A stretch of 64,000 nucleotides of DNA from Escherichia phage 308Ecol101PP. The notes under the pieces are model-generated. The model made no database searches and had not been told where the DNA came from. It was given only the letters and a program-made list of their open reading frames with translations. Shown here piece after piece: positions 16,549-47,596 of this stretch. Both the position numbers and the translations under genes were made by a program. The first letter of the stretch is position 1, and each line of letters starts with the position of its first letter. Location: sequence record OR062945.1. One strand, written 5' to 3'.

Positions 16549-19260
16549 ATGAAAGAATTTTACTTAACGGTTGAACAGATTGGTGATTCAATTTTTGAAC
16601 GTTACATCGATTCTAACGGCCGTGAACGTACTCGTGAAGTAGAATATAAACCATCACTGTTTGCTCATTGTCCAGAAAGTCAGGCTACGAAATATTTCGA
16701 TATCTACGGTAAGCCGTGTACTCGTAAGTTGTTCGCCAATATGCGTGATGCCTCCCAATGGATTAAACGCATGGAAGATATCGGACTTGAAGCACTTGGC
16801 ATGGATGATTTCAAATTGGCGTATTTGTCTGACACTTATAACTATGAAATCAAATACGACCATACAAAAATTCGTGTGGCTAACTTCGACATCGAAGTAA
16901 CATCTCCGGACGGGTTCCCTGAGCCGTCACAAGCAAAACATCCGATTGATGCTATCACTCATTATGACTCAATTGATGACAGGTTTTATGTATTTGACCT
17001 TTTGAATTCTCCATATGGTAATGTAGAAGAATGGTCTATTGAAATCGCTGCTAAGCTTCAAGAACAAGGCGGTGATGAAGTTCCATCTGAAATTATCGAT
17101 AAAATCATTTATATGCCGTTCGATAACGAAAAAGAATTGTTGATGGAATATCTCAACTTCTGGCAACAGAAAACTCCTGTCATTTTGACTGGATGGAACG
17201 TTGAGTCATTTGATATTCCATATGTGTATAACCGAATCAAGAATATTTTTGGCGAATCTACTGCGAAACGTTTATCACCACATCGTAAAACTCGTGTTAA
17301 AGTTATCGAAAACATGTATGGTTCTCGTGAAATCATTACATTGTTCGGTATCTCTGTTCTTGATTACATTGACCTTTACAAAAAATTCTCTTTTACCAAT
17401 CAACCATCATATTCTCTGGATTACATTTCAGAATTTGAATTGAACGTTGGTAAACTGAAATATGACGGCCCTATTTCTAAGCTTCGTGAAAGCAATCACC
17501 AACGATATATTTCTTATAACATTATCGACGTGTATCGTGTATTGCAAATTGATGCTAAACGTCAGTTCATCAACTTGAGTTTGGACATGGGTTATTATGC
17601 TAAGATACAGATTCAATCTGTGTTTAGCCCAATTAAAACATGGGATGCTATTATTTTTAATAGCCTTAAAGAGCAGAACAAGGTGATTCCACAAGGTCGT
17701 TCTCACCCGGTTCAACCTTATCCCGGCGCTTTTGTTAAGGAACCTATTCCAAATCGATACAAATATGTAATGAGTTTCGACCTTACATCTCTGTATCCAA
17801 GTATTATTCGCCAAGTGAATATTAGCCCAGAAACAATAGCAGGAACGTTTAAAGTAGCTCCACTACATGATTATATTAACGCAATCGCTGAACGTCCTTC
17901 TGATGTGTACAGTTGTTCTCCTAACGGCATGATGTATTATAAAGACCGTGACGGTGTTGTTCCAACTGAAATCACTAAAGTCTTTAATCAACGTAAAGAA
18001 CATAAAGGTTACATGCTTGCAGCTCAACGTAATGGCGAAATAATTAAAGAGGCATTGCATAATCCTAATCTTTCTGTTGACGAACCATTAGATGTTGATT
18101 ATCGTTTCGACTTCAGTGATGAGATTAAAGAAAAGATTAAAAAGTTGTCTGCTAAATCTCTTAATGAAATGTTGTTTAGAGCTCAACGTACTGAAGTTGC
18201 AGGTATGACTGCCCAAATTAACCGTAAATTGCTTATCAACTCACTTTATGGTGCACTTGGCAACGTTTGGTTCCGTTATTATGATTTGCGTAATGCTACT
18301 GCAATCACAACATTCGGGCAAATGGCTTTACAGTGGATTGAACGTAAAGTTAATGAATATCTGAATGAAGTTTGTGGCACAGAAGGTGAAGCTTTCGTTC
18401 TTTATGGTGATACAGACTCTATTTACGTATCTGCTGATAAAATTATCGATAAGGTTGGTGAATCTAAATTCCGTGATACCAACCATTGGGTAGACTTCTT
18501 AGATAAGTTTGCACGTGAACGTATGGAACCAGCTATTGATAGAGGTTTCCGTGAAATGTGTGAATACATGAACAATAAACAACACTTAATGTTCATGGAC
18601 CGAGAAGCTATCGCTGGGCCTCCACTCGGTTCTAAAGGTATTGGTGGATTCTGGACTGGTAAGAAACGTTATGCATTAAACGTGTGGGATATGGAAGGAA
18701 CCAGATACGCTGAGCCTAAACTCAAAATCATGGGTCTAGAGACTCAGAAATCTTCGACTCCTAAAGCAGTACAGAAAGCTCTTAAAGAATGTATTCGTCG
18801 TATGCTTCAAGAAGGTGAAGAATCATTACAAGAATATTTTAAAGAGTTTGAAAAAGAATTCCGTCAATTGAATTATATTAGCATCGCGTCGGTATCTTCT
18901 GCGAATAACATTGCTAAATATGATGTAGGTGGATTCCCTGGTCCTAAATGCCCGTTCCATATTCGTGGAATTCTGACGTATAACCGGGCTATCAAAGGTA
19001 ATATCGATGCACCGCAAGTTGTAGAAGGTGAAAAAGTATATGTTCTGCCTTTACGTGAAGGAAACCCATTCGGTGATAAATGTATCGCATGGCCTTCTGG
19101 TACTGAAATCACAGATTTAATTAAAGACGATGTACTTCATTGGATGGACTACACTGTTCTCCTTGAGAAGACATTTATTAAACCACTTGAAGGATTCACA
19201 TCAGCAGCGAAACTCGATTACGAGAAGAAAGCATCTCTGTTCGATATGTTCGATTTTTGA
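16549..19260 (+). CDS. 43: DNA polymerase gp43 (family B, with 3'-5' exonuclease)
   Basis: 903 aa; exonuclease motif FDIEV, polymerase motifs DLTSLYPSI, KLLINSLYG and YGDTDS; N-terminus matches my memory of RB69 gp43. Confidence 0.95.
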   Translation: MKEFYLTVEQIGDSIFERYIDSNGRERTREVEYKPSLFAHCPESQATKYFDIYGKPCTRKLFANMRDASQWIKRMEDIGLEALGMDDFKLAYLSDTYNYEIKYDHTKIRVANFDIEVTSPDGFPEPSQAKHPIDAITHYDSIDDRFYVFDLLNSPYGNVEEWSIEIAAKLQEQGGDEVPSEIIDKIIYMPFDNEKELLMEYLNFWQQKTPVILTGWNVESFDIPYVYNRIKNIFGESTAKRLSPHRKTRVKVIENMYGSREIITLFGISVLDYIDLYKKFSFTNQPSYSLDYISEFELNVGKLKYDGPISKLRESNHQRYISYNIIDVYRVLQIDAKRQFINLSLDMGYYAKIQIQSVFSPIKTWDAIIFNSLKEQNKVIPQGRSHPVQPYPGAFVKEPIPNRYKYVMSFDLTSLYPSIIRQVNISPETIAGTFKVAPLHDYINAIAERPSDVYSCSPNGMMYYKDRDGVVPTEITKVFNQRKEHKGYMLAAQRNGEIIKEALHNPNLSVDEPLDVDYRFDFSDEIKEKIKKLSAKSLNEMLFRAQRTEVAGMTAQINRKLLINSLYGALGNVWFRYYDLRNATAITTFGQMALQWIERKVNEYLNEVCGTEGEAFVLYGDTDSIYVSADKIIDKVGESKFRDTNHWVDFLDKFARERMEPAIDRGFREMCEYMNNKQHLMFMDREAIAGPPLGSKGIGGFWTGKKRYALNVWDMEGTRYAEPKLKIMGLETQKSSTPKAVQKALKECIRRMLQEGEESLQEYFKEFEKEFRQLNYISIASVSSANNIAKYDVGGFPGPKCPFHIRGILTYNRAIKGNIDAPQVVEGEKVYVLPLREGNPFGDKCIAWPSGTEITDLIKDDVLHWMDYTVLLEKTFIKPLEGFTSAAKLDYEKKASLFDMFDF

Positions 19261-19300: not shown

Positions 19301-19936
19301 ATGAAAACTACTCCTATTACTATCGCTATTGACGCAATCATAAAACAAGCTTCTTCTTTGGCCGCTATGGCCAAAGTAATTAGTCAAAACCCTGCTCGTT
19401 ATAATGCTATTCTAGAAACTCTTCGACGCCCAGGACTTAGTAATTATGAAAGCCGAGTAATTATTACAGGTGTTGGTAAGAATGCTAATATTGCAACTAA
19501 AGCTTCTGAGACATTTGCTTCACTTGGTATCCCGAGTATGTACTTGAACACTGGGCATTATTCTCACGGTGATGCAGGATTCATTGCGCCTAATGATGTG
19601 TTGATTCATATTAGTCGTTCTGGTAAAACTGAAGAAATGATAGGCGTGGCTAAGCATCTTAAAATGATTCGTCCGAACGTCAAACAGATTCTGTTGCATT
19701 GTAACCCGGACATTCCACAAGAATACGAAGCTCTTTTTGATTATACGTTCTGTACAGGCATCGCAGTAGAGGTTGATGAGAATTCTCTGGCTCCGACCAT
19801 GTCCACTACATTGTTGTTAGCGCTTATCGATACGTTTGCTATCAACCTTTCGTCTGAACGTGGATTTACCTCTAATGACTTCCTTAAGTTCCACCCTGGT
19901 GGTGCACTAGGTGCCATGTTACGAGGCGAACAATGA
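19301..19936 (+). CDS. SIS-domain sugar-phosphate isomerase (KdsD/GutQ-like or GmhA-like, no CBS domains)
   Basis: 211 aa; SIS-like pattern GVGKNANIA...SRSGKTEE and C-terminal HPGGALG, characteristic of arabinose-5-phosphate isomerase SIS domains. Confidence 0.7.
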   Translation: MKTTPITIAIDAIIKQASSLAAMAKVISQNPARYNAILETLRRPGLSNYESRVIITGVGKNANIATKASETFASLGIPSMYLNTGHYSHGDAGFIAPNDVLIHISRSGKTEEMIGVAKHLKMIRPNVKQILLHCNPDIPQEYEALFDYTFCTGIAVEVDENSLAPTMSTTLLLALIDTFAINLSSERGFTSNDFLKFHPGGALGAMLRGEQ

Positions 19937-20117: not shown

Positions 20118-21803
20118 ATGAAAAAAGCTGTTATTCTTGGTGCTGGACTGGCAACTCGTTTGTATCCAATAACGCATCATATTCCTAAGGTGCTTGTTAA
20201 CTATAAACAAGACACTATTCTGAGCAATTTGTATACAATTTATTCTGACCTTGGCGCAGATGAAATTATTGTAGTAGTTCATTCAAAATTTGCTGAAACT
20301 GTTCGAGCTTATTGTGAGCAAGAAGGGTTCAATGTGACTATTCGTACAGTTGATGAAGCGTATGGTTCTGCTTATGCTCTTGCTAAATTGCACAAAGATT
20401 TAGACGGCCATAATGTAATTGTTAACTGGTGTGATATTATTCCTGATTTTGGTTCGTGGTCTTGGAATGTTAACGCAATCTATGTTAAGGGTGACGAATG
20501 TCGATATAATTTCGACGGTGAAAATATCACTAATGTAGGTTCAACAGGTGGTAATGTTGTAGGAATTTATCAGTTCAAAGACTGGGAATTCTATATGGGT
20601 TCTACTGATGAGGAAATTCATGAATACTGCAAAGGACGTGATTTCGTAGAATTCCTTTACGGCAGCGCATTCAATAAATCAGAGCTTATGAATCTAATTG
20701 ATTTAGGTGATATGCCTAAACTTGAAAAAGCTCATGAAGTTCGTGAACTTAATCGTAGTTTTAATGCAGTTGAAATTGGTGAAGAAACTGTAACTAAATT
20801 CGCATTAACCGAACAGGGCCGAGCTCTTCAGAAAGATGAGATTTCATGGTATCTTAAAGTGAAATCAGATTCAGTTCCTCAGTTAGTTTCTGTTAATGAA
20901 AATAACTTTGAAATGGAACGCATTAAAGGTAAGCCGGCATTTGAATATATTAAATCCAAATCAAGTCTTGCTCGTCCACAAATTGTTGATGCAATTTTAG
21001 ATGCACTGAAATTCAGCACAGACACTTATTTTGTAAGTCCTGAAACTGTTCGTCGTGATTTCACTAAAGAATTCTATACTAAAGTTATTGATCGTTGTGA
21101 AAGTATTCAACCATTGATTGATTCATTTGGTAAAATCACACATGTGAACTACACTAAGATTGGGCGTCTGAAGCCAATGTTGAAACAAGCTTTAGAACAC
21201 CTTATTCGTTATCATAACCGTTCTCAGGGACAGTACTCTGTTATTCATGGTGACCCGAACTTCAGTAATACTATGATTACTGATAATGGTGAAGTCAAGT
21301 TTATCGACCCTCGTGGATATTTTGGTGAAACCAAGATTTATGGGCCAAAATTGTATGATGAAGCTAAAGTGCTTTACGCTGTTTCAGGTTATGATGAATT
21401 CAACGCTAATCCGACTTGGGGACAGTTTACTATTGATGAAACAACTTGTAATGTGACTATTAACATCAATCCGTTAGTTTACAAATATGGAAAGATGAGT
21501 TCGTTTAACGAGTATCATCATTTGGCAGTGGCAATTATCTGGATTGCATTAGGTGGTTATTTCAAGAATAATCCACTTAAAGCGGTAGCCGCATATTATA
21601 AAGGTATGGAACTTCTGACTAAGCAATTACGTAATATGGGCCGTGTACTTCAGGACGGCACTATTAGTTATGATGTAGCAGAACCTGTAACGGCTACTCT
21701 GATTACAAAAAATCCTGGTAAATGGGTACTAACTGATAAAGAAACTGGTGTTTCTTATCGTCCAATCGGTGGCGATATCACTCATCAATGGGAACGAATC
21801 TAA
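20118..21803 (+). CDS. bifunctional sugar-1-phosphate nucleotidyltransferase / kinase-fold protein
   Basis: N-terminus ILGAGLATRLYPIT resembles the G-x-G-T-R motif of sugar nucleotidyltransferases; C-terminal HGDPNFSNTMI...KFIDPRG resembles the catalytic loop of APH/choline-kinase-fold kinases. Confidence 0.7.
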   Translation: MKKAVILGAGLATRLYPITHHIPKVLVNYKQDTILSNLYTIYSDLGADEIIVVVHSKFAETVRAYCEQEGFNVTIRTVDEAYGSAYALAKLHKDLDGHNVIVNWCDIIPDFGSWSWNVNAIYVKGDECRYNFDGENITNVGSTGGNVVGIYQFKDWEFYMGSTDEEIHEYCKGRDFVEFLYGSAFNKSELMNLIDLGDMPKLEKAHEVRELNRSFNAVEIGEETVTKFALTEQGRALQKDEISWYLKVKSDSVPQLVSVNENNFEMERIKGKPAFEYIKSKSSLARPQIVDAILDALKFSTDTYFVSPETVRRDFTKEFYTKVIDRCESIQPLIDSFGKITHVNYTKIGRLKPMLKQALEHLIRYHNRSQGQYSVIHGDPNFSNTMITDNGEVKFIDPRGYFGETKIYGPKLYDEAKVLYAVSGYDEFNANPTWGQFTIDETTCNVTININPLVYKYGKMSSFNEYHHLAVAIIWIALGGYFKNNPLKAVAAYYKGMELLTKQLRNMGRVLQDGTISYDVAEPVTATLITKNPGKWVLTDKETGVSYRPIGGDITHQWERI

Positions 21804-22189
21804 TGCACCGTGTAAAAAACATGCTTAATCTTTGTTTTGATGTCGATGATTGTATAACAGAGTGGAATAACAATCGTGATTACGTGAACTTCAAACCAGA
21901 CGTCGAAATGGTGTCTGCCATTAATGCCCTGTATGATGCAGGGCATACCATAACGCTTTACACTGCTCGCGGTATGAAGTCAGTAGGTCCTGGTCGTATA
22001 GCAATTGACATTCTCCCAAGTCTGATTCAGAACTTGGCAAACATTGGATTGAAGTACCATAATTTGCTAACACATAAACCAGTATATGATTGGATTATCG
22101 ACGACAAAGCTATGCGTCCTGACGAATTCAAAGCTCTTATGAATAAAGGCGAATTCGAAACATTTAAATCATATAAACCGAATCTATAA
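21803..22189 (+). CDS. HAD-superfamily phosphatase
   Basis: 128 aa with HAD motif I (FDVDDCIT); TAATG overlap with upstream gene; track start 21788. Confidence 0.6.
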   Translation: MHRVKNMLNLCFDVDDCITEWNNNRDYVNFKPDVEMVSAINALYDAGHTITLYTARGMKSVGPGRIAIDILPSLIQNLANIGLKYHNLLTHKPVYDWIIDDKAMRPDEFKALMNKGEFETFKSYKPNL

Positions 22190-22235: not shown

Positions 22236-23411
22236 ATGCAAAAAAAAAAAATGAATACTTTTAAAATCGGAACGAATTTTGATTTAGCTCTTCTTGATAA
22301 AATCGTAGAGCTCAATAAAACTTATCCTAATAGCTTGATAAACGAAGTATACGGCTCTACAAGAGAAATGGCTTTTGTAGCAGCCAGACCTGATTTTAGG
22401 CTTCCTGACGTTGACAAAAAGATGTTAGAAGATTACGTTAAACGTTGTAACGAATTAGGTATTTGCTTTAACTATACACTCAACACGATAAATCCTGGTT
22501 CAAAAAGAGAACTAGTTGAGTGGAAGAAGAAAGCTATTCAGGATTATGTTCAGTATCTTTGGTCAATAGGCGTATGGCGTATTACTATCGCTAACCCTGT
22601 TGTTATGGAAATTGTTCGTGAAGTCAATAAAGACATTGAGATTGAAGTTTCAACAATTCTACATGTCGATGCTGTAACTCAAATCAAATACTTGCATGAC
22701 CAATATAATATCAAAAAGGTCTGCTGTGGAATTCATAAGAACCGTTCAGTTTCTTTCCTGAAACGTGCAGCAGAGTTTTGTAATAAGAACAATATAATAT
22801 TTGAAGTTCTTGTAAATGAGTTCTGTTCTAATGCTGGTAAAGGGTACACAACACATTGTAGCTATCGTGACTCTTGCTATATTTTCCATAGCACCGATGT
22901 TACAGTAGATGATGCCAAATCCTTAAATGGATATCCAATGCAACACTGTATTAAAGCTCGTGATACAGATCCATTTAACTGGTTGAGAACTCGTTTTGTT
23001 CGTCCTCAAGATTTGAAACTTTATAATGATATTGGTATCACTCAATTTAAAGTTTCAGGACGTACAGGTAGCACCGACTACATTTTAAAAGTTCTTGAAG
23101 CTTACGCTTCTGAAAAGTTTGAAGGTAATTTGTTGGAATTGTGGAAGCCTTTAGAGACCATTTTCACTCTTGAAAATGAGACTGAGTTTTCACATACGGT
23201 AAATATTGAAACCTCTTTGTTAGACGGCTTTTTAGAAAAAAGGTGGTTCAAACATCCAGATTTCGATTGTGCTAATGAAATCTGCGGGACGACGTGTACA
23301 TATTGTGAAAGATATTATAAACGTCAGTTATCTAAAAATGGGTTATCAGAAAACTCTATATCTATTATTGATATAACTAACTCTGATGACGCTTTGAGGT
23401 ACCCAGAATGA
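22236..23411 (+). CDS. hypothetical Cys-rich protein (start at ATG 22236 or 22251)
   Basis: 391 aa with many Cys (CCGIH, EFCSNAG, HCSYRDSC, CANEICGTTCTYCE); an A12 tract lies between the two candidate ATGs. Confidence 0.5.
   Translation: MQKKKMNTFKIGTNFDLALLDKIVELNKTYPNSLINEVYGSTREMAFVAARPDFRLPDVDKKMLEDYVKRCNELGICFNYTLNTINPGSKRELVEWKKKAIQDYVQYLWSIGVWRITIANPVVMEIVREVNKDIEIEVSTILHVDAVTQIKYLHDQYNIKKVCCGIHKNRSVSFLKRAAEFCNKNNIIFEVLVNEFCSNAGKGYTTHCSYRDSCYIFHSTDVTVDDAKSLNGYPMQHCIKARDTDPFNWLRTRFVRPQDLKLYNDIGITQFKVSGRTGSTDYILKVLEAYASEKFEGNLLELWKPLETIFTLENETEFSHTVNIETSLLDGFLEKRWFKHPDFDCANEICGTTCTYCERYYKRQLSKNGLSENSISIIDITNSDDALRYPE
22240..22251 (+). repeat. homopolymeric A12 tract at the 5' end of the Cys-rich gene
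   Basis: ATGCAAAAAAAAAAAATG read directly from the sequence. Confidence 0.8.
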
Positions 23412-23493
23412 TTTCTAGAAAAACTTTTAACCACCAACTTAACGAAGAGATTTTGACTATTAAAATTAACAGCAACGAACAAATTCTTAAAAA

Positions 23494-23513
23494 GGCCCTT
23501 ATGGGCCTGTTTG
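23494..23513 (+). terminator. candidate weak terminator hairpin
   Basis: GGCCC-TTAT-GGGCC followed by TGTTTG. Confidence 0.3.
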
Positions 23514-23645
23514 AAACTAAAGCGGCTAAAGTGATTAAAGAAACCTGTTCAACTAGAATACTACGCTGATGCATTTCTTCATAGTGTTCTTGGAAATATC
23601 GATGCTGAAGCTTTACGTTATATCAACATCGCTAAGAAATTCAAA

Positions 23646-23671
23646 TAAGCTTTATGAATTGAGTATATAAT
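23646..23671 (+). promoter_or_regulatory. candidate MotA-dependent middle promoter upstream of gene 42
   Basis: AAGCTTTA box, then 11 nt, then TATAAT (23666-23671). Confidence 0.4.
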
Positions 23672-23689
23672 AACTGTATTGAGGTAAAC

Positions 23690-24406
23690 ATGGGAAAACA
23701 TAACACAATGAAATATATTAAAGCCGCAGATTTTCAATCCGCATTTAAAGCTGTCAATCGTGAAATTTTAGAAAATCCACAGTTCGTTACTGATTCTCGT
23801 ATTGGACGTTGTAATGAAATTGGGTCTATGACAGTAGTTGTTGATACCCCTTCATCATTCAAAATGACCGACCCACGTATTAATCGCATCTCTTATGAAT
23901 ATGCTGAAGATTTCTGGAAATTTATGATTTCTGGTGGTACTGATGCAAAAGAAGCATTTAAGGCATATCCTAACGTTGCTAAATTTATTTCTAAACCTAA
24001 ATCAGACGCTTTGCCTGCAAACTTCAACACTTTCTATGGTCCACGAATTGCGGCCCAGTTACCAGCTCTTCTCAAAGAACTTAAAGAGAAACCTAATTCA
24101 CGAAGAGTTGTGTTTCAAATTCTTGAAAGTTCAGATCAGGCTTTGCTTGATTCGGATGAAACGCTTGAATATCCATGTACTGACTCAGTGACTTATTATA
24201 TTCGTGATGGTAAGCTTTATACCCACTGTCATATGCGTTCTCAGAACTGTGCTGTTGTTATGCAGTTGGATTTTTATCTCCAAGGAAAATTACTTCATTA
24301 TATCGCTAACGAATGTGGTGTAGAAGTTGGTGATTATACTCATACCATGGTAAGTGCCCATGTGTTTGAACGTGATTTTGATTATGTTAAAGGATTCCTT
24401 GACTAA
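23690..24406 (+). CDS. 42: dCMP hydroxymethylase (thymidylate-synthase fold)
   Basis: 238 aa; TS-family pattern SRRVVFQIL ... YPCTDS (catalytic Cys) ... QLDFY (Asp 31 residues after the Cys, as in cytosine-specific members). Confidence 0.7.
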   Translation: MGKHNTMKYIKAADFQSAFKAVNREILENPQFVTDSRIGRCNEIGSMTVVVDTPSSFKMTDPRINRISYEYAEDFWKFMISGGTDAKEAFKAYPNVAKFISKPKSDALPANFNTFYGPRIAAQLPALLKELKEKPNSRRVVFQILESSDQALLDSDETLEYPCTDSVTYYIRDGKLYTHCHMRSQNCAVVMQLDFYLQGKLLHYIANECGVEVGDYTHTMVSAHVFERDFDYVKGFLD

Positions 24407-25305
24407 TGGCTATTTTCCGCGTACCTATCTTGAGTATGCGGTCTTATGAAACTGGACAGTATGCTATCCTTAAGGATGGCAACTTCCAACTTCATTTGCA
24501 CCGTGCTAATCCGGGTGATGTGATTACATATCCACGTAATGCATCTGATATTAAAGAATGCGAACGTCTTTTTCCAGAATTTAAGTTTGTTCCATTATGG
24601 TATAAAGATAACGCGTATAACACTCGTAAATATTTCTGGTCTGAAAATGAATTTGTGGTTGATTCATTAATTGCTTATTATGATTGTGATTTTCTAATCA
24701 CAGATATCACTGGATATGACGGCGCTTTTGATGTGGAATTCAATTTCAATATCACTGCAGACCCTAATAAACCACGTTTTTATATTGACGAATTCTTAAA
24801 AACCGACATGTTGTCGGTTAATCGTTCACTTCAAACTACTGTGTTGAATGAACGTCAAAAAGAAGTGCTGGTTAACGCAGGTGCAGATGGTAATAAGATT
24901 ATCGTAACCCAGAAAGTTATACGTCCTTCCATCATGCAGCGTCTTGTAGGTGATTTGGCTCCTATTCATCTAGATGGTATTTTTCATCCATTTCGAATTA
25001 GTGACCCGTGCTATCGTTTTGAACAAGTGGTTGAATGTGCAATTCAATTAGGTCAACCGCTTTATATAACTGATCCAAATAATAGTTTCGACAGAAATAA
25101 GTATCCTGAAGAAGCGCTGATTCGAATTTTTAATCCAACTAAAACTGAGTACTATCAAATTCTTAAAGGACGTCCGAAGATTCAATATTTCGAAAATCCT
25201 GAAGAAGTATTCCATCCAGGTCTTGGTGAGTTCATCTACTTTAATGCTTTAATTTCTTCGCCGTATAATATACCTAAATACGAAGATGTCGTAATCGAGG
25301 AATAA
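24406..25305 (+). CDS. hypothetical protein at the locus where T4 encodes beta-glucosyltransferase
   Basis: 299 aa, TAATG overlap with gene 42; no resemblance to T4 beta-GT that I can see. Confidence 0.5.
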   Translation: MAIFRVPILSMRSYETGQYAILKDGNFQLHLHRANPGDVITYPRNASDIKECERLFPEFKFVPLWYKDNAYNTRKYFWSENEFVVDSLIAYYDCDFLITDITGYDGAFDVEFNFNITADPNKPRFYIDEFLKTDMLSVNRSLQTTVLNERQKEVLVNAGADGNKIIVTQKVIRPSIMQRLVGDLAPIHLDGIFHPFRISDPCYRFEQVVECAIQLGQPLYITDPNNSFDRNKYPEEALIRIFNPTKTEYYQILKGRPKIQYFENPEEVFHPGLGEFIYFNALISSPYNIPKYEDVVIEE

Positions 25306-25306
25306 A

Positions 25307-25855
25307 ATGGTTAAAATTATTTTAGTAGATGGCCCGGATAATGCCGGTAAAACAACTTTCATTAATGACATAATGGAAATTAGTGAAAGATATGTAAAGA
25401 TTGATTTCCCTAAACGAACAGTTGATGGACGTTTCGATGTTAAGTCTCGAAATGAAGTTGGCTGTTTCGAAACGATGTTGAATTATTTAGACCCTACTAA
25501 GATTTATCTGTTAGACCGTGGATATATTAGTAACTGGGTTTATGGACGTATTCGACAAGATGCGGACTCGGTTCTTGACGTTTATGAACAGGATTATGTT
25601 CGTCTTTGCCAAAACCATGATGTGTTCACAATTATTTTAACACGTAACGAAATGACTGAAAGTTTTGAAGACGACCTTATTACTTTGTCTTCATTCGGTT
25701 TTAATACAGTCATTTCATATTTTGAAGAGTTTGCAATTCATAACAAAATCCAAACGTATCAATTACTTAATCATGACGGTGCTAACAAAGTTATAGGATT
25801 TAATGCAAGCGAACGTAATTATTTGATTACAGAAATTATCAAATGGGCTCGTTAA
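25307..25855 (+). CDS. P-loop nucleotide kinase, thymidylate-kinase-like
   Basis: 182 aa; Walker A VDGPDNAGKTT and DRGY motif as in the Tmk family. Confidence 0.55.
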   Translation: MVKIILVDGPDNAGKTTFINDIMEISERYVKIDFPKRTVDGRFDVKSRNEVGCFETMLNYLDPTKIYLLDRGYISNWVYGRIRQDADSVLDVYEQDYVRLCQNHDVFTIILTRNEMTESFEDDLITLSSFGFNTVISYFEEFAIHNKIQTYQLLNHDGANKVIGFNASERNYLITEIIKWAR

Positions 25856-25954: not shown

Positions 25955-27127
25955 ATGTCTGATTTAAAATCTCGTCTGATTAAAGCTTCTACTTCTAAAA
26001 TGACTGCAGACTTGACTAAGTCTAAGCTGTTTAATAATCGTGATGAAGTCCCTACTCGTATTCCGATGTTGAATATTGCATTAGGTGGTGCACTGAATGC
26101 CGGGTTGCAATCAGGCTTAACTATTTTTGCTGCTCCTTCTAAACACTTTAAAACGTTGTTTGGGCTGACCATGGTTGCAGCATATATGAAGAAATATAAA
26201 GATGCAATTTGTTTGTTCTATGATTCAGAATTTGGTGCTTCAGAATCTTATTTTCGTTCAATGGGTGTTGATTTAGACCGTGTAGTTCATACTCCTATTC
26301 AATCTGTCGAACAACTTAAAGTTGATATGACTAATCAGCTTGACGCGATTGAACGTGGTGATAAAGTTATTATCTTTATCGATTCAATCGGTAATACTGC
26401 ATCTAAGAAAGAAACCGAAGATGCGTTGAACGAGAAAGTCGTAGGTGATATGTCTCGTGCTAAGGCACTTAAATCTCTTTTCCGTATTGTGACCCCGTAT
26501 CTGACTATTAAAGATATTCCGTGTGTTGCAATTAACCATACAGCAATGGAAATCGGCGGATTGTATCCTAAAGAGATTATGGGCGGTGGTACAGGTATTC
26601 TTTATTCTGCCAACACGGTATTTTTTATCTCTAAACGTCAGGTTAAAGAAGGCACAGAATTGACCGGTTATGACTTCACGTTGAAAGCAGAAAAATCTCG
26701 AACCGTTAAAGAAAAATCTACTTTCCCAATCACGGTTAATTTTGATGGTGGTATCGACCCATTCAGTGGCTTGTTAGAAATGGCAACTGAAATTGGTTTT
26801 GTAGTTAAGCCTAAAGCCGGGTGGTATGCTCGAGAATTCCTTGACGAAGAAACAGGCGAAATGATTCGTGAAGAAAAATCATGGCGTGCTAAAGCTACTG
26901 ATTGTGTAGAATTCTGGGGACCGTTGTTTAAACACAAACCTTTCCGAGACGCAATTGAAACTAAATATAAACTAGGTGCTATCTCTTCTATTAAAGAAGT
27001 TGATGACGCTGTTAATGACCTTATTAATTGCAAAGCAACAACTAAAGTTCCGGTTAAAACTTCTGATGCACCGTCTGCAGCAGATATAGAAAACGACCTT
27101 GACGAAATGGAAGATTTCGATGAATAA
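25955..27127 (+). CDS. uvsX: RecA-like recombinase UvsX
   Basis: 390 aa; N-terminus and RecA-fold core match T4 UvsX from memory. Confidence 0.9.
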   Translation: MSDLKSRLIKASTSKMTADLTKSKLFNNRDEVPTRIPMLNIALGGALNAGLQSGLTIFAAPSKHFKTLFGLTMVAAYMKKYKDAICLFYDSEFGASESYFRSMGVDLDRVVHTPIQSVEQLKVDMTNQLDAIERGDKVIIFIDSIGNTASKKETEDALNEKVVGDMSRAKALKSLFRIVTPYLTIKDIPCVAINHTAMEIGGLYPKEIMGGGTGILYSANTVFFISKRQVKEGTELTGYDFTLKAEKSRTVKEKSTFPITVNFDGGIDPFSGLLEMATEIGFVVKPKAGWYAREFLDEETGEMIREEKSWRAKATDCVEFWGPLFKHKPFRDAIETKYKLGAISSIKEVDDAVNDLINCKATTKVPVKTSDAPSAADIENDLDEMEDFDE

Positions 27128-33841: not shown

Positions 33842-33929
33842 AATATCTCCTTAGTTACCTATTATTTATTACGCTTTATAAAATTAATGTTAGAATTAAC
33901 TCTCTTATACTGAATTGAAAGGAAAAATA

Positions 33930-34451
33930 ATGGCACACTTTAACGAATGTTCACAACTTATTTCTGGTGTTGATAAAGCAGAAGAAGCTTATTTTAATGC
34001 TCTGATTCACGAAGATAAAGACCCACTTCAGGTAATGCTTGATATGCAGAAATCTTTACAGGTTCGTTTGGCAAATGACAAGCCTGAACATAACAAACAT
34101 CCTGATGAATTGGCCACTGCAGGCGACGTTGTTGATTGGCTGCGTAATCAGAAAGATTATATTGATGATGAATTCCGTGAACTGCTGACTTCACTTGGTG
34201 GTATGAGCAATGGTGAAAAAGCCGCCAGCAGTGTATGGAAGCCGTGGAAAGCACAACATGCTGAATATCGTAATCGTCGTATCGATGAACTGTCTCCTGA
34301 AGACCAGCTTGAAATTAAATTTGAGATGATTGATATTCTGCACTTCGTTCTGAACATGTTCCAAGGTCTGGGTCTTTCTGCTGAAGAAATCTTTAAACTG
34401 TATTATCTGAAGAATGCTGAAAACTTTGCTCGTCAAGACCGAGGTTATTAA
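33930..34451 (+). CDS. 56: dCTP/dUTP pyrophosphatase gp56 (MazG-like)
   Basis: 173 aa starting MAHFNE with acidic MazG-type helices; track start 33915 is TTG. Confidence 0.75.
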   Translation: MAHFNECSQLISGVDKAEEAYFNALIHEDKDPLQVMLDMQKSLQVRLANDKPEHNKHPDELATAGDVVDWLRNQKDYIDDEFRELLTSLGGMSNGEKAASSVWKPWKAQHAEYRNRRIDELSPEDQLEIKFEMIDILHFVLNMFQGLGLSAEEIFKLYYLKNAENFARQDRGY

Positions 34452-46495: not shown

Positions 46496-47596
46496 ATGAA
46501 AGTTATGTTTATCCCATCTCGCGCAGTCCCATTTAATCCTGACCGTGTACAAGGTGGTCTTGAAGCAGTACATTTAAATGTGTTGAAATATCTTGTGTCC
46601 ATCGGTGCTGATATTGATTATATCGGCTTTGATAATGACACGTTTGGTGACTGGAAAGTTACACACCATCCTGTTGGTCATCTGACTAAATTTAGTCTAG
46701 GTATGAGTTATACTATGGCTCGTAAGATTGTTGAACTAGCCGGCATCCATGAATACGATTTTGTTGTTACTATGGAACCGACTAAACTAACCGTTCAGGC
46801 AATTAAAGACGCAGGTCTCTCTAAAGTTCATAAGAATTTTATGGCAACACCATTTGAACCGGTATCTCGTGGCATTGTTCAAATTTGGGACCAGACTATT
46901 CAAATTCATAAGAATGGTGGTAAGAGTTATGCTCCTACTAAAGCCTTCCGTGAATTTGAACGCAAATATTGTTATATGACTTCAGGTCTGACTGACAAAA
47001 TTGATTATGATTATTGGCGAGCAAATCCGTTGTTTGAAGCCGAAGATTATCCGGTTATTTGTTTGAATGAGAAACCTGAAGTTCTTCCGGCGACTGATCT
47101 GATTATTAGTGCACAACGTTATGACACTAAAATGCGTCGTACTGATGTTGCTCTTGAAGCGATTAAAGCACTAGGCGAAAATGGTGTAGGATACTGTCCA
47201 AGCAAATGGGCACCACCAGCTAAATATCCTGTTATTATTGATGCTCCACACAGTGAAATCATGGAACGTCTTAAAACAGCTAAAGCGCTTATTAATACGT
47301 GTCCTGACACAGGTACGGTAGAGAATAGTTCTATTGAAGCCATCTCTAAAGGTGTCCCTGTAATCCAGTTAGTTTTTAAGGATTATCCTCATGCGACATT
47401 CGAATACGACCCAGATACTGTGCGTGTAGAAATTGATTCCTCTACTCCTAAGAAAGAAGTAGTTGCGCTTTACACAAAAGCTGTATTAGAATTCACTGAC
47501 ACATACGAAGCTCGAGTTAAACGTGCTGAAGCAGTATGGAAGAAGTATAACCGAGATGCAGTTGTTGCGATGTGGGATAAAATCTTCACAGCGTAA
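46496..47596 (+). CDS. GT-B fold glycosyltransferase (GT4-like), candidate DNA glycosyltransferase
   Basis: 366 aa; C-terminal E-x7-E-type motif VENSSIEAISKGVPVIQ typical of GT4 retaining glycosyltransferases; N-terminus MKVMFIPSRAVPFNPDRVQGG. Confidence 0.6.
   Translation: MKVMFIPSRAVPFNPDRVQGGLEAVHLNVLKYLVSIGADIDYIGFDNDTFGDWKVTHHPVGHLTKFSLGMSYTMARKIVELAGIHEYDFVVTMEPTKLTVQAIKDAGLSKVHKNFMATPFEPVSRGIVQIWDQTIQIHKNGGKSYAPTKAFREFERKYCYMTSGLTDKIDYDYWRANPLFEAEDYPVICLNEKPEVLPATDLIISAQRYDTKMRRTDVALEAIKALGENGVGYCPSKWAPPAKYPVIIDAPHSEIMERLKTAKALINTCPDTGTVENSSIEAISKGVPVIQLVFKDYPHATFEYDPDTVRVEIDSSTPKKEVVALYTKAVLEFTDTYEARVKRAEAVWKKYNRDAVVAMWDKIFTA

Follow-up and report, generated by a model that had tools for sequence, protein, structure and literature searches.

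The gene at 23690-24406 of the window (the whole 64,000-nucleotide stretch of the Escherichia phage 308Ecol101PP genome that was analysed; all coordinates refer to it and all features named here lie on the + strand) almost certainly encodes AfhB, or 5hodCMP synthase. AfhB is a thymidylate synthase (TS) homologue that hydroxylates dCMP at C5 by means of a flavin and O2, and not of methylene-tetrahydrofolate. None of the results speaks against this assignment. The dCMP 5-hydroxylase identity is already known: there is a crystal structure for this very protein, and its biochemistry has been published. The function is assigned here by analogy, from assays of identical or 98.7%-identical proteins and not of phage 308Ecol101PP. 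Because the protein is a dCMP 5-hydroxylase, the arabinosylated base is expected to be 5-hydroxycytosine and not hmC.

Identity with AfhB and RB69 gp48

The coding sequence, which specifies 238 aa, was defined by its open reading frame, a match to Pfam PF00303 and identity to PDB entries. Over its full 238 aa the protein has 100% identity to that in PDB 9iqc/9ir2 and 9iqu (AfhB of phage HY126) and to the copy in the HY126 genome. It is 98.7% identical to RB69 gp48 (RB69ORF048c), from which it differs by three amino-acid substitutions, and 69% identical to DLP3 gp80. An AlphaFold model of the protein (pLDDT 87.6) matches 9iqc with a TM of 0.95. HY126 has the same gene neighbourhood; the window DNA is ~98% and not 100% identical to it, indicating a separate Mosigvirus isolate. 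In RB69, the cluster order and the signature residues likewise match. The RB69 record splits the adjacent glycosyltransferase and kinase/NTase genes, both of which are intact ORFs in the window; the splits have been attributed to sequencing errors (PMC13326640).

The title of PDB 9IQC reads "monooxygenase dependent on riboflavin with dCMP and FAD", and that of 9IQU names the phage HY126 "dCMP hydroxylase-AfhB", with its substrate dCMP. The structures 9IQC, 9IQU and 9IR2 are those of He et al. (Nat Chem Biol 2026). In published work by others, the identical or 98.7%-identical protein converts dCMP to 5-hydroxy-dCMP, takes the oxygen from O2 and binds FMN or FAD; the 5-hydroxy-dCMP is phosphorylated by a phage dNMP kinase and then built into DNA. 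The sources differ on the flavin: PMC13326640 describes it as FMN-like, and the PDB titles give FAD or riboflavin.

RB69 gp48 and DLP3 gp80 both yield 5hodC in vivo (PMC13326640, NAR 2026). In the same study the RB69 gp48 product was labelled by 18O2, so that its oxygen comes from O2, and FMN co-purified with the enzyme. The product was 5hodC (243 Da) and not 5hmdC in a side-by-side run with T4 gp42. The study took D169N (E. coli ThyA numbering) as diagnostic, and 5hodC was likewise the product of nine other homologues with D169N. NMR and MS of RB69 DNA placed arabinofuranose (Araf) in direct ether linkage to the C5-O of 5-hydroxycytosine, and the base fragment had an m/z of 128, not 142 (PMC13326640). 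A 5-hydroxycytosine/arabinose pathway is also stated for the genus Mosigvirus (PMC13390438).

The first-pass annotation had read the gene as a dCMP hydroxymethylase and had taken hmC as the glycosylated base. Neither reading holds. The first fails on the dCMP 5-hydroxylase activity of the identical HY126 AfhB and of RB69 gp48, on the active-site residue Asn186 and on an identity of 25% to T4 gp42, and the second on the C5-O-linked arabinose of RB69 DNA. The older view agrees with the 2018 literature on RB69 (PMC6024577), which was revised in 2025-2026.

Active-site residues and proposed reaction

In MAFFT alignments with the T4 and E. coli K-12 record sequences, Cys163 (codon 24176-24178) pairs with the catalytic Cys148 of T4 gp42 and Cys146 of E. 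coli ThyA, and it is invariant across 120 homologues. Asp194 (24269-24271) falls opposite Asp179 in T4 and Asn177 in E. coli. This position governs the selection of cytosine over uracil, and PMC13326640 traces Asp as the cytosine selector to Hardy & Nalivaika 1992 and Graves 1992. Because Asp194 is of the cytosine type, dCMP is the expected substrate. Asn186 (24245-24247) stands where E. coli has D169 and T4 has D171; in the published work, an Asn here is what marks a 5hodCMP synthase. Glu160 (24167-24169) corresponds to E. coli L143 and T4 D145 and places an acidic side chain at the active-site mouth (PMC13326640). Cys163, Asp194 and Glu160 make up the set expected of a 5hodCMP synthase, and all three are present.

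Several parts of the first-pass annotation were borne out by these alignments. It had pointed to a TS fold, to a catalytic Cys in YPCTDS (from residue 161) and to a cytosine-type Asp in QLDFY (from residue 192), 31 residues further on, and it had correctly named Cys148 and Asp179 as the T4 equivalents. The spacing of 31 residues is common to ThyA, gp42 and this protein and therefore has no power to separate the sub-families. In the comparison with T4 gp42 and thymidylate synthases that the annotation proposed, the specificity position holds Asp and not Asn. An Asn at that position, or activity on dUMP only, which it had named as refuting its reading, is unable to tell a hydroxylase from a hydroxymethylase.

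How would such an active site hydroxylate dCMP? The Cys163 thiolate would add to C6 of dCMP, as it does throughout TS-family enzymes, while Asp194 would bind N3 and N4 of the cytosine. The activated C5 could then attack a flavin C4a-hydroperoxide seated at the site that holds the folate pterin in TS. At this flavin site Asn186 and Val190 probably stand in for the pterin-binding Asp and Gly. Once C5 has lost its proton and Cys163 has been eliminated, 5-hydroxy-dCMP would be set free.

Arabinose and nucleotide genes around afhB

NDP-sugar synthesis and DNA glycosyltransferase genes accompany afhB in the window, an association expected of a 5hodCMP synthase. Three upstream genes have counterparts in the published pathway (PMC13326640). 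The first, at 19301-19936, encodes a D-arabinose-5-phosphate isomerase (KdsD/GutQ-like SIS; RB69 gp55), matched by Pfam SIS, NCBIfam KpsF/GutQ (2.2e-32) and phrog_5670. The second, at 20118-21803, is one intact 561-aa ORF (phrog_4098) with an NTP_transferase N-terminal domain and a kinase-like C-terminal domain, and encodes a bifunctional Ara5P kinase/UDP-arabinose pyrophosphorylase (AfhE-like; RB69 gp52:53). The third, at 21788-22189, encodes a HAD-type sugar phosphatase (AfhF-like; RB69 gp51; TIGR01689 capsule biosynthesis phosphatase, 4.2e-13).

Directly downstream lies the gene for DNA arabinosyltransferase 1 (RB69 gp46:47; 24406-25305), whose start overlaps the afhB stop (TAATG); it was assigned from phrog_3891, synteny with RB69 and DLP3, and Table 1 of PMC13326640. 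The placement of the gene beside sugar-activation and glycosyltransferase genes, noticed in the first-pass annotation, is thus correct. A thymidylate-kinase-like putative nucleotide kinase (RB69 gp45; phrog_761; PMC13326640 Table 1) follows at 25307-25855. Further away are a gp56-type dCTP pyrophosphatase at 33915-34451 (Pfam dUTPase_2; phrog_173), which supplies dCMP and removes dCTP, and DNA arabinosyltransferase 2 at 46496-47596. The latter sits between topoisomerase gp39 and rIIA and is 99.2% identical to RB69ORF003c (PMC13326640 Table 1; PMC13390438). A tRNA scan of the window found none.

These genes suggest a route in which the gp56 dCTPase would provide dCMP, AfhB would hydroxylate it and kinases would raise the product to the triphosphate. 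The gp43 polymerase would then insert 5-hydroxycytosine instead of cytosine, and the two arabinosyltransferases would attach arabinofuranose from UDP-arabinose. Just upstream of afhB are the genes for the three enzymes that would make the UDP-arabinose, namely the isomerase, the kinase/pyrophosphorylase and the phosphatase.

A possible O2-independent partner

The gene directly upstream of afhB in this cluster, at 22236-23411, encodes a U32-family protein (RB69 gp50; phrog_5757) that matches Pfam Peptidase_U32 (PF01136) at 6.6e-11, above the gathering score. One tentative reading is a dual system in which AfhB serves as the aerobic half and the U32 protein makes 5-hydroxycytosine without O2, with prephenate as the oxygen donor. 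This reading adds to the dCMP 5-hydroxylase explanation and does not replace it. It draws on characterised U32 proteins, which are O2-independent, prephenate-dependent hydroxylases; among them, RlhA makes 5-hydroxycytidine in 23S rRNA (PMC5727448, PMC6599085, PMC10990095).

The distribution of the genes is consistent with such a partnership. In 54 records of related phages, the TS homologue has a neighbour that encodes chorismate mutase, which produces prephenate; in both clusters inspected, this neighbour directly follows the U32 gene. The U32 gene occurs in 221 phage records, all from Enterobacterales or Shewanella phages, and the 57 Acinetobacter phage records with AfhB all lack it. DLP3, which has no U32 gene, still makes tri-arabinosyl-5hoC, so the U32 protein is dispensable for the sugar chemistry.

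Other observations argue against it. When the U32 protein was compared with E. coli UbiU, UbiV, TrhP and RlhA, phmmer gave no matches and the best BLASTP E was 0.14; a sequence search against solved structures also gave no matches. In an alignment at 17-21% identity, C197, C208 and C214 align with known U32 hydroxylases, but the second of the four canonical cluster Cys aligns with a Gly. In UbiU/UbiV, four conserved Cys ligate the 4Fe-4S cluster. The C-terminus carries an additional C345-x4-C350-x3-C354-x2-C357. U32 also appears to be absent from about 40 of the Escherichia phage records that have AfhB, and PMC13326640 lists the U32 protein only as a "sugar or heterocycle reductase".

Mosigviruses, this window included, are also without an intact chorismate mutase. 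In the slot where related phages hold that gene, the window has a remnant of RB69ORF049c (79 aa in RB69) at 23408-23648, in which one additional A within the run 23541-23543 shifts the reading frame. RB69ORF049c has no similarity to phage chorismate mutase and no Pfam match. That the small ORF is a decayed chorismate mutase is suggested by its position only.

Taken on its own, the idea that the U32 gene encodes an O2-independent, prephenate-dependent pyrimidine C5 hydroxylase, giving 5-hydroxycytosine DNA in the anoxic gut, is rather doubtful. If it were true, phages of facultative anaerobes could modify their DNA where the O2-dependent AfhB cannot work, in parallel to the bacterial TrhO/TrhP dual pathway for tRNA, and the frameshifted chorismate-mutase slot would leave the phage reliant on host prephenate. 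A literature search for links of U32 and chorismate mutase to these phages, or for the Afh gene names, returned only PMC13326640 and papers citing it.

Hydroxylase, hydroxymethylase or thymidylate synthase

What sets the dCMP 5-hydroxylase apart from other TS-fold enzymes? The match to the family is far beyond chance, judging from the hits to Pfam Thymidylat_synt (PF00303; E=2.4e-15) and phrog_160 "thymidylate synthase" (E=1.2e-46) and from the 100% identity to a solved structure. The fold, the catalytic Cys and the cytosine-type Asp are together insufficient to distinguish hydroxylases from hydroxymethylases. In E. coli ThyA numbering, the two are separated by position 169 (Asp versus Asn) and, in the sample compared, also by position 173 (Gly versus Val). 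E143, C146, N169, V173 and D177 are found in all 120 database homologues (97-54% identity) as well as in PTm1 and Atu_ph04, whereas T4 gp42, Xp15 and ThyA have D169 and G173. The protein encoded at 23690-24406 has Asn186 and Val190 at these two positions, so it carries the published D169N mark (PMC13326640).

The pre-2025 view was that of a T4-type dCMP hydroxymethylase, a gp42 orthologue that uses CH2-THF to make 5-hydroxymethyl-dCMP, with hmC as the base that is glycosylated. It has several points in its favour. Like T4 gp42, the protein has a TS fold with a catalytic Cys and takes dCMP as substrate; in both, the N177 position is held by Asp, the L143 position by an acidic residue and the H147 position by Thr. 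Its gene occupies the T4 gene 42 slot between DNA polymerase gp43 and uvsX. Several GenBank records label the gene dCMP hydroxymethylase, and the 2018 RB69 paper assumed the same (PMC6024577).

Nevertheless, this view is very improbable. Identity to T4 gp42 is only 25% (pairwise E=1e-12), and Tequatrovirus gp42 genes match the protein only at E of 1e-3 to 1e-4 (tblastn). The pterin-binding Asp (T4 D171) is replaced by Asn186 and the conserved Gly (E. coli G173) by Val190. Identical and near-identical proteins give 5hodC with oxygen from 18O2 and not 5hmdC, RB69 DNA gives the fragment of m/z 128 and not 142 and has the direct C5-O-Araf link by NMR, and the PDB titles speak of a hydroxylase and a flavin monooxygenase. 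In other words, T4 gp42 uses CH2-THF to add a hydroxymethyl, whereas AfhB uses a flavin and O2 to add a hydroxyl. The hydroxymethylase was rejected on residues 169 and 173, on the 25% identity to gp42 and on the published product, by which it is refuted for the identical protein.

Outside the AfhB clade, the nearest solved structure is MilA, the CMP 5-hydroxymethylase of mildiomycin biosynthesis (PDB 5JNH, 5B6D; Foldseek TMq 0.83-0.85, 23-24% identity). MilA has Asp at both the 177 and the 143 positions (PMC13326640). Unlike the protein studied here, MilA depends on folate and uses the ribonucleotide CMP; it is also longer, by ~80 residues, and its product carries a hydroxymethyl.

A genuine thymidylate synthase, converting dUMP to dTMP, is what PF00303, phrog_160 and many GenBank annotations would have the protein be. 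This is exceedingly improbable in view of the Asp at the uracil-specificity position, the Glu for Leu143, the Asn for Asp169, the determined substrate and product (dCMP and 5hodCMP; PMC13326640, PDB titles), and NCBIfam TS equivalog scores of 17-70 bits that all lie far below the cut-offs of 108-427 (best 69.6 against 174.55). Among the thymidylate synthase models, only the Pfam domain-level threshold was passed, and a true thymidylate synthase was discarded on the specificity residues and the sub-threshold equivalog scores. E. coli ThyA shares with the protein the fold, Cys146, Arg166, Ser167, Tyr94 and the consecutive Arg pair of the DSRR/NSRR motif. It differs by N177D, L143E, D169N, G173V and H147T at an identity of 19-23%, and by a C-terminal segment that is missing from the phage protein. 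When T4 gp42 and E. coli ThyA were run by tblastn against the 64 kb window, beyond which lie another ~105 kb of genome, no further match had E<2, and hence no second TS-fold gene was seen in the window.

The distinction between the dCMP 5-hydroxylase and these relatives has practical value as a correction, as the gene is still labelled "thymidylate synthase" or "dCMP hydroxymethylase" in many GenBank records. Knowing that the base is arabinosyl-5-hydroxycytosine and not arabinosyl-hmC matters for predicting sensitivity to restriction, type IV and glycosylase defences. It likewise matters for reading sequencing or mass-spectrometry data of Mosigvirus phages used in therapy.

Putative signals upstream of afhB

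A scan for promoters and terminators around afhB returned sites no more numerous than in shuffled sequence. A putative Shine-Dalgarno GAGG, read from the sequence, is located at 23681-23684, 5 nt 5' of the afhB ATG. Further upstream, at ~23645-23670, AAGCTTTA is followed 11 nt on by TATAAT. Judged by eye, this arrangement resembles a T4 MotA-type middle promoter.

Identity of the AfhB open reading frame

The open reading frame at 23690..24406 (+) begins with ATG, has a GAGG sequence 5 nt 5' of that codon and encodes a protein of 238 residues, AfhB, whose residue numbers are used without a label below. The YPCTDS motif begins at residue 161 (Cys163) and the QLDFY motif at residue 192 (Asp194). 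In an alignment with T4 gp42 (gene 42 from NC_000866) and the E. coli thymidylate synthase ThyA (thyA from E. coli K-12), Cys163 pairs with T4 Cys148 and E. coli Cys146, and Asp194 pairs with T4 Asp179 and E. coli Asn177. The first-pass annotation was thus correct about the location of the gene, the thymidylate synthase (TS)-family Cys and Asp set 31 residues apart, and the T4 numbering. This spacing occurs throughout the superfamily and is therefore uninformative on sub-family. Family membership also appears in matches to Pfam Thymidylat_synt (E=2.4e-15, exceeding the gathering score) and to phrog_160 (E=1.2e-46).

A PDB sequence search identified the protein. Chains of 9iqc and 9ir2 are identical to AfhB over all 238 residues, and a 9iqu chain is identical over residues 5-238. 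An AlphaFold model of AfhB (50 homologues, pLDDT 87.6) matches 9iqc with a TM of 0.95. The entry titles, both released 2025-07-16, read 'Monooxygenase dependent on riboflavin with dCMP and FAD' and 'phage HY126 dCMP hydroxylase-AfhB with substrate dCMP'. The window belongs to Mosigvirus, that is, to the RB69-like T-even phages, and its DNA is ~98% identical to that of HY126, JS09, PNJ-6 and others. In tblastn searches with AfhB, the HY126 copy was 100% identical, RB69ORF048c 98.7%, the Shewanella phage Thanatos-1 homologue 72% and Acinetobacter phage DLP3 gp80 69%, while gp42 of T4-like Tequatroviruses was only ~25% identical. The pairwise comparison with T4 gp42 likewise gave 25% identity (E=1e-12).

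Direct evidence for the chemistry comes from published work on these relatives. E. coli expression of RB69 gp48 and DLP3 gp80 yielded 5-hydroxy-2'-deoxycytidine (5hodC; 243 Da), which was distinct from the 5-hydroxymethyl product (5hmdC) of T4 gp42 in one and the same assay; the 5hodC was labelled by 18O2, and FMN co-purified with the 5hodCMP synthase (Lee et al., NAR 2026, PMC13326640). For the HY126 enzyme, a flavin in the crystal structure and in vitro reconstitution of O2-dependent hydroxylation are reported by He et al. (Nat Chem Biol 2026), as cited in PMC13326640. MS and NMR of RB69 DNA showed beta-D-Araf-3-alpha-D-Araf joined by an ether bond to the C5-O of 5-hydroxycytosine, with a base fragment of m/z 128, not 142 (PMC13326640). 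A separate 2026 paper gives an identical pathway for the genus Mosigvirus (PMC13390438). The gene had been read as a dCMP hydroxymethylase that supplies hydroxymethylcytosine (hmC) for glycosylation, which repeats the accepted view of 2018 (PMC6024577). Of that reading, the TS fold, the dCMP substrate and the sugar-gene context stand, but the chemistry and the modified base do not, as the HY126 and RB69 data identify 5hodC as the product. All tested features of the AfhB / 5hodCMP synthase branch are present in AfhB. This assignment is already known, since a crystal structure and a functional characterisation of the identical sequence exist.

Residues that distinguish AfhB

The alignment separates AfhB, T4 gp42 and ThyA at several active-site positions. 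At E. coli position 143 the residues are Glu160, Asp145 and Leu143, respectively; at position 147 they are Thr164, Thr149 and His147; and at position 169 they are Asn186, Asp171 and Asp169. Asp169-to-Asn (E. coli numbering) has been proposed as diagnostic of 5hodCMP synthases and is the sole diagnostic residue named in PMC13326640. The residue survey covered 120 homologues (97-54% identity), to which PTm1 (39%), Agrobacterium phage Atu_ph04 (32%), Xp15, T4 gp42 and ThyA were added. E143, C146, N169, V173 and D177 occurred in every AfhB-clade member (the 120 homologues, PTm1 and Atu_ph04), and D169 and G173 occurred in Xp15, T4 gp42 and ThyA. Judged from these aligned sequences, Gly173-to-Val, represented by Val190 (codon 24257-24259, +), is a second clade-invariant difference within the surveyed sample.

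AfhB was also considered as a hydroxymethylase of the gp42 type and rejected, as it has neither the pterin-binding Asp/Gly pair nor orthologue-level similarity. It scores far under all NCBIfam thymidylate-synthase equivalog cut-offs. In TS enzymology, ThyA-type Arg166, Ser167, the Arg pair of the NSRR motif and a Tyr are phosphate-binding and catalytic residues. The alignment shows that AfhB keeps Arg183 and Ser184 (ThyA Arg166 and Ser167), Arg138-Arg139 of the NSRR motif and Tyr116. These residues are consistent with nucleotide binding as in TS, and AfhB may also form a TS-like dimer.

Proposed mechanism

For identical or near-identical proteins, the substrate dCMP, the product 5-hydroxy-dCMP, the origin of the oxygen in O2 and the bound flavin are established, as far as PMC13326640 and the PDB titles describe them. 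The steps between can be proposed from TS-family and flavin monooxygenase chemistry. Cys163 would add to C6 of dCMP, and Asp194 would hold N3/N4 of the cytosine. The nucleophilic C5 would attack a flavin C4a-hydroperoxide, which may be lodged in the former pterin pocket, reshaped by Asn186 and Val190. Deprotonation and thiol elimination would release the product. Up to C5 activation, this chemistry would be like that of T4 gp42.

Gene neighbourhood

Profile matches and synteny on the + strand bear out the placement of the gene beside a sugar module. The gp43 DNA polymerase gene (16549-19260) is followed by genes for an arabinose-5-phosphate isomerase (19301-19936), an AfhE-like bifunctional kinase/nucleotidyltransferase of 561 aa (20118-21803), an AfhF-like HAD phosphatase (21788-22189) and a U32-family protein (RB69 gp50; 22236-23411), and by a small frameshifted ORF, a remnant of RB69ORF049c (23408-23648). 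Downstream of afhB lie genes for arabinosyltransferase 1 (299 aa; 24406-25305) and a thymidylate-kinase-like protein (25307-25855), then uvsX (25955-27127) and a gp56-type dCTPase gene (33915-34451). The cluster order equals that of RB69 ORF055c-045c and of the HY126 cluster gene for gene, and in T4 the corresponding slot is taken up by imm, gene 42, beta-gt and segA. No other TS-fold gene was found in the 64-kb window by tblastn with T4 gp42 and ThyA.

At 24404-24408 the stop codon of afhB shares a base with the start codon of the arabinosyltransferase 1 gene (TAATG), which suggests translational coupling of the hydroxylase with the first glycosyltransferase. The RB69 GenBank record splits the kinase/nucleotidyltransferase (ORF053c/052c) and arabinosyltransferase 1 (ORF047c/046c), each of which is one intact ORF in the window. 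The splits have been attributed to sequencing errors (PMC13326640), and the intact ORFs agree with this. A second arabinosyltransferase, 99.2% identical to RB69ORF003c, is encoded at 46496-47596 (+), some 22 kb away from the main cluster and flanked by topoisomerase gp39 and rIIA. This protein is without a Pfam match and falls in phrog_8302 ('unknown function'); its Acinetobacter phage homologues, ~42% identical, are labelled DNA alpha-glucosyltransferase. Public labels of several genes in the main cluster are often misleading: the HAD phosphatase appears as 'phosphoheptose isomerase', AfhB as 'thymidylate synthase' or 'deoxycytidylate 5-hydroxymethyltransferase', and the presumed nucleotide kinase at 25307-25855 as 'thymidylate kinase'.

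The U32 protein and the chorismate mutase slot

The U32 gene product is listed in PMC13326640 merely as 'sugar or heterocycle reductase', without discussion there. As described in PMC5727448, PMC6599085 and PMC10990095, the U32 proteins characterised so far are O2-independent, prephenate-dependent hydroxylases; RlhA forms 5-hydroxycytidine in 23S rRNA, TrhP forms ho5U in tRNA, and UbiU/UbiV contribute to ubiquinone synthesis under anaerobic conditions. By analogy, the phage protein might provide a second, O2-independent route to 5-hydroxycytosine, an idea that is tentative and rather unlikely. Its distribution points towards such a route: the U32 protein was found, at 80% identity or above, in 221 records, from phages with Enterobacterales hosts plus Shewanella phage Thanatos-2, and none of the 221 is from an Acinetobacter phage. 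The AfhB clade comprises 342 records, 57 of them from Acinetobacter phages. DLP3 makes tri-arabinosyl-5hoC (PMC13326640) and is without a U32 gene. Against the idea, pairwise comparison of the phage protein with the E. coli paralogues gave no significant similarity, one canonical cluster Cys position aligns with Gly, and in the record comparison some Escherichia phages with AfhB appear to lack U32. A C-terminal C-x4-C-x3-C-x2-C cluster (DFDCANEICGTTCTYC; U32 residues 345-357, 23268-23306, +) is conserved in the homologues of Erwinia and Shewanella phages, and aligned E. coli UbiU, UbiV, TrhP and RlhA lack it. This cluster may serve as an additional site for a metal or an Fe-S cluster.

The gene context in related phages also points towards a second route: prephenate is made by chorismate mutase, and type II chorismate mutases are encoded next to the U32 gene in two related clusters. 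In Erwinia phage Virsaitis27, ORF37 (locus L011, 7170-7514; Pfam CM_2, 1.7e-11) lies between the U32 and TS homologues, and in Thanatos-2, TH2_069 (locus L012, 8134-8391; CM_2, 8e-8) directly follows the U32 gene. Searches by tblastn found the enzyme in 54 phage records from many enterobacterial genera; among the matches listed, it usually lay under or beside an annotated TS homologue or U32 'peptidase'. The Mosigvirus clusters speak against it, as their corresponding slot holds RB69ORF049c (79 aa in RB69; phrog_8601), in which sequence comparison and Pfam detected no similarity to chorismate mutase. In the window copy (23408-23648, +), one additional A within the run at 23541-23543 shifts the frame, so that a 53-aa ORF ends at 23569 and the remainder continues in another frame to TAA at 23646-23648. 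HY126 and VIPECOMC06 have different indels at the same place, and the gene therefore seems to be undergoing decay in Mosigviruses.
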